From IMG/VR virus record IMGVR_UViG_3300029745_000175: 14,664 nt of DNA; one strand, written 5' to 3'. Positions 1,519 to 4,492 of this stretch are shown one piece after another. The translations under genes were made by a program, and so were the position numbers. The notes beneath the pieces are model-generated. The model made no database searches, had not been told where the DNA came from, and saw only the letters and a program-made list of their open reading frames with translations. This DNA is from a virus. Its lineage: Duplodnaviria > Heunggongvirae > Uroviricota > Caudoviricetes. Position 1 is the first letter of the stretch, and each line of letters starts with the position of its first letter.

Positions 1519-2027
1519 TATGCAAGCCTCACAATATAGTTAAATGCGATGTTTTTGACGGTGTTTTCCGCGTTACCAGCAGCGTTAACGGTGATGGTGT
1601 GTCCATGTGAGCCAATCGCAACCGAGTGCGTATGAGCACCAATACCGACAGTATGTGCGTGTGCACCTGCAGATGCGGCTGTGCCGCTGACACTATGAGT
1701 GTGCGCTCCTGCAGCACTTGTATTCACACTGGCCGCAGACACTACCTTATGTACTGACCCATTTTGTGACCACTGGCTGACTGCTGATGCGCCTATGACA
1801 CTATGAGTATGGTTTCCAGCACTTGCGGCTGTACCGCTCACACTGTGCGTATGCGCCCCGATGTTATTCGTGGATTTAGTGCCGTAATCAAACGACGATG
1901 TGGTTTTCGTCCCCAAATCCGTACTGGATGCGCTGGCGCTGTGGGTGTGCGATTTAATGCCGTCCTGTTCCTGAGACAATACGGCCCGACCACTGGCAGG
2001 TTTGCCCTTAATCGTCCAGCCACGCAT
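1518..2027 (-). CDS. stf: Side tail fibre protein Stf, C-terminal fragment only (about 170 aa with His-rich GAHTHS-type repeats); N-terminal 600 aa absent
   Basis: [34 protein letters not shown] ... [31 protein letters not shown] matches the C-terminus of lambda Stf. The frame is open upstream only to 2063 and is fused to J sequence at about 2033. Confidence 0.8.
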
Positions 2028-4492
2028 ATCAGGCCTTTGAAAAAATCCAGGTAACCTTCGGCATCATCGCTCGCCCGACCGACGGCCTCCACGAATGTCG
2101 ATTTGCCGACTGTGTTCACACTGCGAACGTAAAAATAATAATCATGGCCCGGCTTAATATTGATACTGGCGGCTATCCAGTACAGCGCCGTGCCAAGATA
2201 GCGGGCTGTGGTTTCAACCTGCCTGATATCGGTAATCCGCTTTTCCGAGAACCAGAACTCAAACTGTACCGTCGGGTCATAAACGGCAAGATGCGGCGTG
2301 GCGGTTATCTGAAAATAGCCCGGCGTCAGCTCAATCCGCGACGGCACTGCAGGTGCGGCAATCCGGAACGATACCGATGCCGGATCGCCCTGCTGCCCCC
2401 ACGCATTTACCGCCCGGACTGTCAGCCTGTAGTTCCCCAGCGCCAGCTGCCTGAAGCGGTATGTGGTTTCTGTCGTCCGGGCCGTGCTGACCAGCCGCTC
2501 ACTGCCGTCGTCCGCTGCCACGGTCAGGCGAAGCATAAAGCTCACCCCCTTCACCACCTTCGGCGTGTCCCAGCGCGCCAGCACCTGATATTCTCCGCTG
2601 TCTGCGGTGACTTCGGCAGTCAGGTGCTGCACCGCTGGCGGCGTGACACCATTCACCGTGCCGCTCTGGTCGCCGTCAAAGTGCGCCCCGTTATCCACGA
2701 TGGCCTCTTTTTCCGGTACATGCTGCACGGCGGTGATGGCATACGTGCCGTCATCGTTCTCACGGATACTCACGCAGCGGAACAGGCGCTGGCGCAGCGT
2801 CGGCAGCTTCAGCCCCCATACGCTGTATCCGGCAACGCCGTCAGGAACACGGCTCACTTTTACCTTCACGCCGTCGGTGACGGACTGGACCTCCACGCTG
2901 ACCGGATTGCCTCTTCCGTCAACCAGGCTTATCAGCGTGGTACCGGAGGATGGCAGCGTGATTTCACGGTCGAGCGTCAGCGTCCGGGTCTGGCTGTTCA
3001 CCGCCAGCACGCGCCCGCCGGTGCTGATACCGGCATAGTCATCATCGCAGATTTCAATGACATCGCCCGGTACATGGCGAAGCCCTTCAGCACCCACGCT
3101 GAAGTCCACGGTCTGCGTTTCCAGCAGTTCTGTTTTAATCAGCCACAGCCCGGCTCGGTGTACCTGCCCCCGACTGGTACAGCCAAAGGCATCCATCTTC
3201 GTGACGTTACGACCGTAACGGGCAATGGCCTGCGTGTCCTCCACAAGCTCTGTTGCCGTCTCCCAGCCGTTGTTCGGGTCAATCCAGTTCACCTCAACGG
3301 CATTATGGCGGTCCTTCAGGGCGCTGAAGCTGTAGCGGAACGGCGCGCCATCATCCGGCATCACCACATTACTGCAGTTATAGGTCCACACCTTATCTGA
3401 TGGTCGGTCCTGCACGAACGTCAGCGTCTGCCCGTTCCATACCGGCATACAGCGCATCGCCGAGCAGAAATCACTGAGCACATCCCACGCCTTGCGCTGC
3501 GTGGTCAGGTACGCATTACAGGTGATGCGCGGCTCCGTGCCGCCAAAGCCGTCCGGTACTGACTGGTCGCAGTACTGGCCGATGACATACAGCGCCCATT
3601 TATCCACATCCGCCGCACCAAGACGTTTCCCCATGCCGTAGCGCGGATGGGTCAGCATATCCCACAGACACCAGGCCATGTTGTTGCTGTATGCCGGTTT
3701 AAACGTTCCGTCCCAGATACCGCTGTATTGCCGCGTCTGCGGGTTATAATTCGACGGCACCTGCAGAATACGCCCGCGCAGATGATAATTACGGCTCACC
3801 TGCTGGCTGCCGAACTGCTCCGAGTCCACCTGCACGCCGACCAGTGCCGTGTTCGGGTAGCACTGTTTCACATCGATAATTTCGGTGTATGACGACCAGA
3901 GCGTTTTGTTCTGCAGCTGGTCTGTGGTGCTGTCCGGCGTCATCCTGCGCATCCGGATACTGAACGGGCGCGGCGGCAGGTTATCCACCACCACCGAGGC
4001 CAGATACTGTGAAGTGGTTTTACCCTTAATGGTGATGTCTTTTTCCGTCACCCAGCCACCGTTACGTTGTATCTGAACCAGCAGGCGGACTTCCGATGGA
4101 TTCCTGTCCCCCTTTGAGGTGGTTTCCACCAGTGCCTGCACGCCGAAAGTAAAACGCAGACGGTCAATGTTTGCCGACGTGATGGCGCGGGTGATCGGCG
4201 TGTCATATTTCACTTCTGTACCGAGCACCGTCTCGGAGCCGGAGGATTCAAATCCCTCCGGCGGTGTCTGCTCCTGCTCACCGGCCCGGAACACCACCGT
4301 GACGCCGGATATATTGGTATTCCCCTCACTGTCCAGCACCGGCGTACTGTTCAGCAGCACGCTTTTTAATCCATCCACCGGACCTTCAACCGGCCCTTCG
4401 CTGATGGCATCGATCACACTCAGCAGCTGCGTGGACTTCAGGTTGTCCTTCGCTTCGCGCGGGGTATGCCCCTTACTGCTGCCTTTACCCAT
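1838..4492 (-). CDS. J: Host specificity / central tail fibre protein J, C-terminally truncated: J-like for codons 1-820 (4492 to about 2033), then 64 out-of-frame codons read through stf-derived DNA
   Basis: N-terminus [54 protein letters not shown] and the body match lambda J through [16 protein letters not shown]. The remaining roughly 310 codons of lambda J, including the receptor-binding C-terminus, are missing. Confidence 0.9.

Follow-up and report, generated by a model that had tools for sequence, protein, structure and literature searches.

How should one read a phage tail gene that breaks off next to a ribosomal slippery sequence and runs on, out of frame, into the end of another tail gene? 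The question is raised by J and the side fibre gene stf in the 14,664-nt stretch of DNA analysed here (the window; IMG/VR record IMGVR_UViG_3300029745_000175). A sequence-only reading had proposed, in hedged terms, that their joint is a -1 recoding site specifying a J-Stf chimera, with a plain deletion pseudogene as the fallback. Our data favor the fallback. The joint is very probably an ordinary deletion pseudogene in a defective prophage, with the adjacent heptamer a coincidence; alignment to intact genes, the loss of frame and the missing particle genes make this the best-supported account. The recoding proposal fares poorly, given a heptamer that predates the joint, an ordinary downstream RNA structure and conservation limited to near-identical DNA.

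Architecture of the joint

The elements at the joint are as follows.

937..1518, minus strand: tfa (tail fibre assembly chaperone), 193 aa, intact
1518..2033, minus strand: stf-derived DNA, the last ~172 codons of a 1131-aa Stf
1518..2027, minus strand: stf-frame ORF from the ATG at 2027, 169 aa
1838..4492, minus strand: truncated J reading frame (J'), 884 aa, made up of J codons 1-820 and 64 out-of-frame codons from stf DNA, then TGA
2032..2033, minus strand: deletion joint, J ...AAAGGC / CTGATATGCG... stf, with a single shared C
2033..4492, minus strand: J-derived DNA, 97% identical to the intact J of the E. coli 13E0767/OkiPb01716 prophages
2039..2045, minus strand: T TTT TTC heptamer, covering the last base of the D816 codon and the codons of F817 and F818 in the zero frame of J

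Homology to J ends at codon 820 (G820, GGC, 2035-2033) and the remainder is stf in the -1 frame. The stf homology begins with the next base (CTGATATGCG, encoding PDMRGW); from 2033/2032 the stf DNA reads CCTGATATGCGTGGCTGG, that is P D M R G W, in a frame offset by -1 relative to that of J, and the junction mRNA is GAU UUU UUC AAA GGC CUG AUA UGC. The tetranucleotide GATA is repeated 2 nt beyond the joint in both parent genes. Alignment to lambda, to whose J the J-derived DNA is 92-95% identical, and to an intact E. coli prophage bears out the earlier claims that J breaks off at codon 820 and is followed, out of frame, by the C-terminal end of Stf, and that the receptor-binding end of J, lom and most of stf have been lost. 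The proposed ATG of the stf fragment at 2027 and the termination of J' after 64 junk codons are also both present in the window. Other details required correction. The junction had been placed on the heptamer; the heptamer exists, but the joint lies 6 nt to its 3' side. The chimera described as J(1-819)-Stf of ~990 aa is indeed an open fusion, of 991 aa without internal stops after a -1 slip, but it keeps J residues 1-818. The loss of ~600 stf codons is real in kind, but the number is ~945 against the 1131-aa Stf of the closest intact relative (~570 on the lambda scale).

The J' product has Pfam matches to FNIII-A_GpJ, Phage-tail_3, Ig_J and Ig_J_second (to residue 818), and Phage_Tail_Tip and Ig_GpJ_C are absent from it; the break in J coincides with the end of the Ig_J_second domain. 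The stf-derived DNA starts inside the Collar domain and includes the HxH Phage_fiber repeats, and the start of tfa overlaps the stf stop (TAATG). As a structural aside, a chimera cut at the end of Ig_J_second could be sensible.

A single deletion in a defective prophage

Set against an intact relative, the prophage of E. coli 13E0767, the window is collinear through J-lom-stf-tfa except for one 4,505-bp gap containing J codons 821-1132, lom and stf codons 1-945; the missing interval is L017 positions 6668 to 11173 (3' end of J, lom, 5' part of stf). Alignment to lambda J and stf, which had been suggested as a check, places the joint with 1 nt of microhomology and confirms that it is out of frame. 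Dividing 4,505 by 3 leaves 2, so that the frame is broken and J' stops prematurely.

Upstream of J', the same prophage carries two further features.

4553..6878, minus strand: tail-tip genes I, K, L and M, intact ORFs
6878..7116, minus strand: second deletion scar, joining the first 18 codons of DUF1441 (small-terminase-like) to the last ~56 codons of the tape-measure gene H

The DUF1441|H joint is at about 7058-7060, with terminase, head, tube and most of H absent between its two parts. Since this scar removes terminase through most of H, the window's prophage cannot build a particle. The element is a defective lambdoid prophage of E. coli with a Qin-like late region. In related contigs the prophage lies between yjjG and prfC, and in the related contig L004 the pin invertase gene follows tfa. 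Positions 1-1686, the left end of the window, match one prophage locus and the rest of the window another.

The locus thus has the hallmarks of a deletion pseudogene: collinear flanks around a single missing interval, a disrupted frame and the loss of other virion genes. We infer that a single illegitimate recombination would have removed the ~4.5 kb from J codon 821 to stf codon 945, welding J codon 820 to the stf PDMRGW codons at 1 nt of microhomology and with a -1 offset. The outcome would be a J pseudogene with 64 nonsense codons and, behind it, an orphaned C-terminal piece of Stf and a tfa that is still intact. The heptamer would then be ordinary Asp-Phe-Phe coding sequence of J that by chance stands beside the break. 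Ribosomal slippage there would stay at a background-to-low level, ~0.1-1% judging from published reporter values, giving a trace of the 991-aa chimera that probably has no selected role.

The heptamer and the RNA downstream of it

The heptamer is native to lambda J, as the sequence-only reading had stated: it occurs in lambda (GGATTTTTTCAAAGGCAAGATAACC) and in every J homologue examined. In intact J genes the -1 frame shuts within 10-22 codons of it; in the window that frame can be read through for 173 codons, as far as the natural stop of stf. A zero-frame X XXY YYZ heptamer and an open -1 extension, two marks of a programmed -1 site, are therefore present, but the heptamer, overlap and extension show no conservation across diverged homologues, the joint being found in one identical DNA segment only. 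In-frame X_XXY_YYZ heptamers are infrequent in J (only three per 1132 codons, 1-2 of them efficient), and the a priori chance that a random joint would fall within 30 nt 3' of an efficient one and in the -1 frame is under about 1%. Two independent in-frame J|stf joints also use J codons 820-822, so the position needs no explanation from the heptamer, and all that is left to coincidence is the -1 frame, a chance of 1 in 3.

In E. coli, U_UUU_UUC belongs to the motifs more prone to shifting, and some IS elements make use of it (PMC4066793). Frameshifting on UUUUUUC in this host amounts to 0.121% without a stimulator (Sharma et al. 2014, supplementary table, PMC4066793), 0.893% with the IS911 stimulators and 7.58% with the IS3 pseudoknot (PMC4066793). 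In the window the sequence following the heptamer can fold.

1969..2035, minus strand: imperfect hairpin(s), beginning 3-5 nt beyond the heptamer on its 3' side, nearly all native stf coding sequence

Prediction of a stimulatory structure had been suggested as a check here, and a hairpin is found, with energies of -22.8 kcal/mol over 60 nt and -26.8 kcal/mol over 70 nt, but its stability is unexceptional. For folds 3' of the heptamer, z is -1.31 at 80 nt and -0.11 at 141 nt. Measured against the tail-gene background of the window itself, the 60-70-nt folds are at the 8.5th percentile, and those of 50 and 80 nt are unremarkable. MFE comparisons revealed no dedicated structure stabler than expected ~5-9 nt 3' of the heptamer, and an Rfam search at gathering threshold found no known frameshift element. 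A home-made pseudoknot score was extreme but is unreliable, as it adds a stem to an unconstrained loop-tail duplex. J and Stf are both trimeric fibres. With an expected efficiency of at most ~1% in the absence of a strong pseudoknot, a J trimer made entirely of chimeras would be vanishingly rare.

Distribution of the joint and comparable scars

Ten copies of the joint were found, all from identical DNA: the window, L004-L007, four further ENA contigs and L018. They include contigs of at least five separate ENA assemblies, for which different assemblers had been used. The in-frame T7 variant was not found among the copies read (window, L004-L007 and L018), all of which have T6. In L018 the joint lies downstream of intact V'-G-T-H-M-L-K-I and the DUF1441|H gutting of the window is not seen, so the scar is not limited to the gutted prophage. 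The joint does not occur in 5,426 complete E. coli genomes, a J-Stf chimera is absent from 50,697 phage records (best coverage of the fusion query, 51%), and the exact 26-nt joint pattern had no matches in one-genome-per-species contigs. A scan with a 17-nt J pattern returned only native J sites amid chance matches and carries no information on hot spots; several of its matches look like contaminating lambda DNA in assemblies of unrelated origin. Gene callers skip the 169-aa ORF, and its exact product is for that reason not on record. In the 90% cluster of J' the members are mostly partial and end at contig ends, which does not amount to a true distribution of truncation points.

Other cryptic prophages carry comparable J|stf scars at other positions and in other frames: Qin of B-1109, 17MR471, strain 573 and P0001, P0002, P0003 and P0006. 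The K-12-like Qin of E. coli B-1109 (NZ_CP117971) has an out-of-frame joint with a 3-nt TAT microhomology, as judged from the parental sequences. Among independent joints, J 820-822 and the PDMRGW codons of stf recur as places where the break lies. The independent joints of 17MR471 and P0003 are no more than 8 nt away from the window's stf break and keep the same Met codon; PGAP annotates the equivalent ORF of 17MR471 as a truncated pseudogene. 17MR471 has the full J C-terminus followed by stf from nearly the same stf base as the window. Derivation of the window joint from that arrangement was ruled out, as the native stf sequence of the window extends 7 bases further upstream than that joint.

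Like the scars of Qin (B-1109), 17MR471, 573 and AW1.7, that of the window joins a J fragment directly to a C-terminal stf fragment with an intact tfa (and pin) following it. All are in lambdoid prophages without head and tail-shaft genes, and the microhomology at the window joint is comparable to the 0-6 nt of these joints, which are often out of frame. The window differs in that the whole N-terminal 820 codons of J are retained, with M, L, K and I intact. Qin itself is broken at about J codon 790, with the TAT overlap, rather than at codon 820, and it occupies ydfJ instead of the yjjG/prfC site.

Alternative explanations

If the joint were a recoding or contingency switch, a -1 slip on U UUU UUC or a T6-to-T7 mutation would produce an identical J(1-818)-Stf protein. 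We regard this as very unlikely. Equally slim are the chances of two ideas that go with it, namely that the chimera swaps the central fibre for a Tfa-assisted Stf tip and so retargets an L018-type phage, and that the recurrence of J 820-822 and stf PDMRGW marks a natural border between modules at which central and side fibres exchange parts. The facts that speak for recoding include the points that count against a pseudogene: the rarity of the heptamer and its shift-prone nature in E. coli (PMC4066793), the hairpin (-23 to -27 kcal/mol) that starts 3-5 nt after it, the coincidence of the joint with a J domain boundary, and L018, which combines the same joint with intact tail genes. To these can be added the -1 frame open for 173 codons, and a tfa that is intact and translationally coupled. 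The shared trimeric form of J and Stf also fits. Against this, heptamer and hairpin sequences are both older than the joint, each in its own parent gene; the downstream structure is not exceptional by z score or local background; the expected slip is at most ~1% lacking a strong pseudoknot; the stf part begins within the Collar domain; and the window's own prophage is unable to assemble tails. Neither a T7 variant nor a diverged conserved copy was found among the copies read, nor a phage with such a J among 50,697 phage records.

Somewhat less improbable, though still very unlikely, is that the orphan 169-aa Stf fragment is expressed with Tfa from the ATG at 2027 and kept for a benefit to the host such as receptor masking. 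There is a precedent in StfE2, a short chimeric Stf fragment of the cryptic prophage e14 that is able to block T2 adsorption and is reported to mask the receptor against incoming phages (PMC12529663). The ATG and ORF are intact to the natural stop and coupled to an intact tfa, the nearby joints of 17MR471 and P0003 preserve the Met codon too, and pin follows tfa in L004. But Shine-Dalgarno complementarity before the ATG is -3.2 kcal/mol, equal to the background mean, compared with -5.6 to -9.3 kcal/mol for nearby real starts, and independent translation of the fragment was rejected on this ground. Moreover, the fragment begins within the Collar domain, its 17MR471 equivalent is called a pseudogene, and neither the e14 pix repeat (in the window) nor any pix-like inverted repeats flanking the fragment were found. 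These repeats bear equally on the highly improbable proposal that a Pin/Gin-family invertase made the joint by pairing a pix site within stf with a quasi-site within J. The pin gene adjoins tfa in L004, break points cluster at the PDMRGW site of stf, and in our own alignment the DNA of that site resembles what we take to be the left half of the Mu gix site. However, the three stf-side breaks differ from one another and lie 2-10 nt from the expected site centre, no convincing site was found in J, and the expected product is an inversion between inverted sites, not a 4.5-kb deletion with a 1-nt overlap. Pix-type inverted repeats were not found in L004 11800-14700, nor the e14 pix sequence in the window at up to 3 mismatches, and a Pin-mediated origin was rejected accordingly. 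Finally, there is next to no chance that the joint is an assembly artefact. The different locus matched by window positions 1-1686 makes some contig chimerism conceivable, but the independent recurrence of the identical joint in at least five separate ENA assemblies from different assemblers refutes an artefact at the joint. A plain deletion pseudogene thus remains the most likely and best-supported explanation, and the reading of the joint as a frameshift device is not supported.

Relation to known systems and significance

The lambda tail genes G and GT use programmed -1 frameshifting on G GGA AAG. Like that site and those of the IS1/IS3-family transposases, the window has a zero-frame X XXY YYZ heptamer and an open -1 frame whose reading would add a C-terminal extension to form a fusion, and U UUU UUC itself serves some IS elements (PMC4066793). 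The G/GT and IS1/IS3 sites, however, are conserved across diverged relatives, have dedicated stimulators and give products of demonstrated function. At the window joint the structure is unexceptional, conservation stops at one DNA lineage, and the heptamer and the sequence 3' of it belong to two unrelated genes that a deletion merged.

Another parallel is laboratory lambda, in which Hendrix and Duda are said to have recognized in 1992 that stf is disrupted by a frameshift mutation, and whose J02459 annotation has orf-401/orf-314 at stf. There as here, a tail-fibre gene is disabled by frame disruption, leaving a C-terminal ORF and an intact tfa, although the lambda lesion is a single-base change and that of the window a 4.5-kb deletion fusing two genes. 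StfE2 of e14 resembles the window fragment as a short Stf C-terminal protein of a defective prophage, encoded beside tfa and the Pin invertase, and has a reported host benefit (PMC12529663); it arises by reversible PinQ/PinE-driven inversion at pix repeats, whereas the window lacks both pix repeats and a good ribosome-binding site.

Were a working chimera nevertheless to be made, deletion and slippage would together create a new receptor-binding tail tip in one step; an L018-type tail module with Tfa might then yield a tail tip of new receptor specificity, and the boundary between the second Ig domain of J and the central fibre would be a natural splice point useful for host-range engineering. 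As a deletion pseudogene, the locus is of limited significance, a further example of lambdoid prophage decay in E. coli, and it indicates that a textbook slippery heptamer beside an out-of-frame joint need not signal recoding.

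Structure of the J-stf joint

The minus strand of the window encodes tail-tip genes of lambda type, then J', a 169-aa ORF and tfa:

6549-6878, minus strand: M, lambda-type tail-tip block
5841-6539, minus strand: L, lambda-type tail-tip block
5092-5844, minus strand: K, lambda-type tail-tip block
4553-5194, minus strand: I, lambda-type tail-tip block
1838-4492, minus strand: J', ORF of 884 aa, J for 820 codons
1518-2027, minus strand: Stf C-terminal ORF of 169 aa, between J' and tfa
937-1518, minus strand: tfa, after the 169-aa ORF

In J' Pfam recognizes FNIII-A_GpJ, Phage-tail_3, Ig_J and Ig_J_second, with Ig_J_second reaching to residue 818, but neither of the domains at the C-terminal end of J, Phage_Tail_Tip and Ig_GpJ_C.

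The joint was fixed by nucleotide alignment to lambda (J02459). The last J-homologous codon is 820 (GGC, window 2035-2033), and homology to lambda orf-314, the C-terminal part of stf, begins at the C of that codon (CCT GAT ATG CGN GGC TGG, encoding PDMRGW). The microhomology is thus 1 nt, a single C common to both parents, with GATA recurring two bases on in J and stf alike.

Sequences at the joint (slash, crossover)
Window: GGATTTTTTCAAAGGC / CTGATATGCGTGGCTGG
Lambda J: GGATTTTTTCAAAGGC / AAGATAACCGAATCC
Lambda stf: GTGCTTC / CTGATATGCGAGGCTGG

Since stf lies in the -1 frame relative to J, J' continues through 64 nonsense codons, which are stf DNA read in the J frame. This bears out the sequence-only reading, which had J homology stop at codon 820, continue into the Stf C-terminus in the -1 frame and terminate after 64 junk codons. 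That reading also placed the junction on a slippery heptamer; T TTT TTC is indeed beside the joint, at 2045-2039, but lies 6 nt 5' of it.

Origin of the joint and state of the prophage

The complete genomes of E. coli 13E0767 and OkiPb01716 contain intact prophages in which J (1132 aa) is followed by lom, stf (1131 aa) and tfa; this J is 97% identical to that of the window. Compared with these, the window lacks one contiguous interval of 4,505 bp (6668 to 11173 in the intact E. coli prophage L017), spanning J codons 821-1132, lom and stf codons 1-945, and the frame offset arises because 4,505 mod 3 = 2. Loss of the J C-terminus and lom had been recognized from the sequence alone, but the missing stf codons, put there at ~600, are 1-945 relative to the intact E. 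coli relatives. We infer that the joint is the product of a deletion by illegitimate recombination.

The exact 884-aa product is recorded only in metagenome assemblies (8 ENA contigs), in which the element is located between yjjG and prfC. The joint is found in none of 5,426 complete E. coli genomes, and none of 50,697 phage genome records has J and the Stf C-terminus at one site, where the top coverage of the fusion query is 51%. E. coli Z142-6 (L008) carries the same yjjG/prfC prophage, 99.9% identical over window 7058-14288, with different deletions: at L008 10637-12256 terminase A is joined to an L fragment, along with a remnant of K and one of the 5' part of J (codons ~55-328), which abuts lom; lom, a 1133-aa stfR and tfa are kept. 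Between them the two copies exemplify separate deletion histories of a single prophage.

A further deletion scar occupies window 6878-7116: a DUF1441 (small-terminase-like) gene keeps its first 18 codons, from ATG 7116, and meets H at ~7058-7060. What is left of H is the last ~56 codons of this tape-measure gene, ending at the M start codon. The prophage has thus lost terminase, portal, capsid and tube genes together with most of H, and cannot make particles. The ENA contig L018 (1-8922; ERZ827440 NODE_4713, JGI/ENA) carries the identical joint and is 100% identical in DNA over window 1931-5390, the two diverging upstream of ~5400. Upstream of J' it has the V C-terminus, G, T, H (857 aa), M, L, K and I, apparently intact and of a different mosaic type, and it ends 103 nt past the joint. 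Because the joint here lies behind intact tail genes, the scar predates, or is independent of, the tail-shaft loss in the window, and at least one element with this joint has a tail module that looks whole.

At the left end, window 1-1686, which takes in the whole of tfa and the final ~56 codons of stf, matches at 99.5-100% identity a prophage remnant in the lambda attachment region, on the bio-ybhB side, of E. coli FORC_081 and others. The yjjG/prfC-site contigs match the window exactly from ~1364 on; their tfa has 30 differing positions, and after it come pin, ynaE, dinI and prfC. This reflects either inter-prophage recombination within tfa/stf (crossover 1364-1604) or a chimeric contig. Rfam matches the IS009 RNA family inside tfa (977-1175, minus strand) and two cspA-type thermoregulator leaders (8973-9388 and 12404-12843, minus strand), which precede cold-shock genes resembling cspI and cspB in the Qin-type late region.

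Possible frameshifting at the heptamer

As the sequence-only reading stated for lambda, the heptamer is native J coding sequence, present in lambda and in all homologues read; in intact J the -1 frame after it closes within 10-22 codons. In the window a -1 slip would yield a protein of 991 aa with no internal stops, in agreement with the chimera of ~990 aa proposed. Frameshifting of all heptamers has been measured in E. coli (Sharma et al. 2014, PMC4066793): UUUUUUC ranked among the more efficient bacterial motifs and is used by some IS elements, giving 0.121% when no stimulator is present, 0.893% when the IS911 Shine-Dalgarno sequence and hairpin are added, and 7.58% with the IS3 pseudoknot. 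An imperfect hairpin, nearly all native stf coding DNA, begins 3-5 nt past the heptamer on its 3' side, with folding energies of -22.8 kcal/mol (60 nt) and -26.8 kcal/mol (70 nt). Three tests show it to be of ordinary stability: against dinucleotide shuffles z is -1.31 (80 nt) and -0.11 (141 nt), and ranked with segments of the same length from tail genes of the window itself the 60-70-nt folds stand at the 8.5th percentile and the 50- and 80-nt folds in mid-distribution. Rfam gives no match at the hairpin region. From the published rates and this ordinary hairpin, slippage can reasonably be expected at ~0.1-1%, a trace by-product. J functions as a trimer, so an all-chimeric tip would be extremely rare at that level. 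Insertion of one T into the T6 run would yield the same fusion in frame, but every readable copy of the joint has T6 and none T7.

A stretch of ~90 nt around the heptamer that matches lambda J exactly also occurs in L030, L036, L062, L071, L093 and L119. Apart from L119, the lambda-J-matching assemblies are labelled Neobacillus, Kitasatospora, Leeuwenhoekiella, a Chromatiales MAG and Bradyrhizobium, and look like lambda DNA contamination.

Comparable joints and interpretation

A J fragment with a C-terminal stf fragment and tfa is common debris of E. coli cryptic prophages. The joint lies at ~J codon 790, with a TAT overlap and out of frame, in the K-12-like Qin of strain B-1109; 17MR471 has the whole J C-terminus, then stf from TAT/GCGTGG; in strain 573 the break falls at J ~756, where the overlap is CGGATT; and in AW1.7 J is fused directly to tfa. 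A protein search with the hypothetical fusion returned in-frame J-Stf ORFs as four singletons (P0001, P0002, P0003 and P0006), and the readable loci among them are gutted prophages, adjoining Nu1, ASH or terminase fragments.

Nearly the same break points recur among these joints, which are independent events in different E. coli prophage remnants:

Window 2027-2045
L013 10652-10700
L015 3158-3200
L002 5600-5620
L014 4830-4850

On the J side, the breaks at codons 820 (window) and 822 (P0001 and P0002) all fall just past Ig_J_second, and codon 756 is used twice (P0006 and strain 573); on the stf side, the breaks of the window, 17MR471 and P0003 all lie within 8 nt, at CCTGATATGCG (PDMRGW). The second Ig domain closes at J residue 818, which is also where J nucleotide types diverge (KITESH, EIGKTH, QITESH). 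The clustering could reflect a microhomology hot spot, selection or ascertainment, the query having been centred on these sites. Two of the joints at J 820/822 are in frame, so that the heptamer is not needed to account for the break position, and most of the apparent coincidence disappears. The terminase-stf joint of FORC_081 (L012 ~11714) and the P0001 J-stf joint (L013 10676) share their first stf nucleotide, GATACCTTCTGCC, probably through GATA(CC) microhomology.

A recombinase is scarcely credible as the maker of the joint: recombinase sites are absent there, pix-like inverted repeats are lacking from the joint to pin in L004, an ENA contig sharing the joint, and the e14 pix sequence is not found in the window. 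A functional or contingency J-Stf chimera is very improbable. An independently made Stf fragment that serves the host, like StfE2 of e14 (PMC12529663), would start at its own ATG, 2027, and is slightly less improbable; anti-Shine-Dalgarno complementarity there is -3.2 kcal/mol, the background mean, against -5.6 to -9.3 for real starts nearby, and independent initiation is not well supported.

The sequence-only observation is correct in all essentials, and its best explanation, which we regard as highly probable, is that a deletion in a decaying prophage left a plain pseudogene, with the slippery heptamer as a bystander. The feature is of an already known kind.
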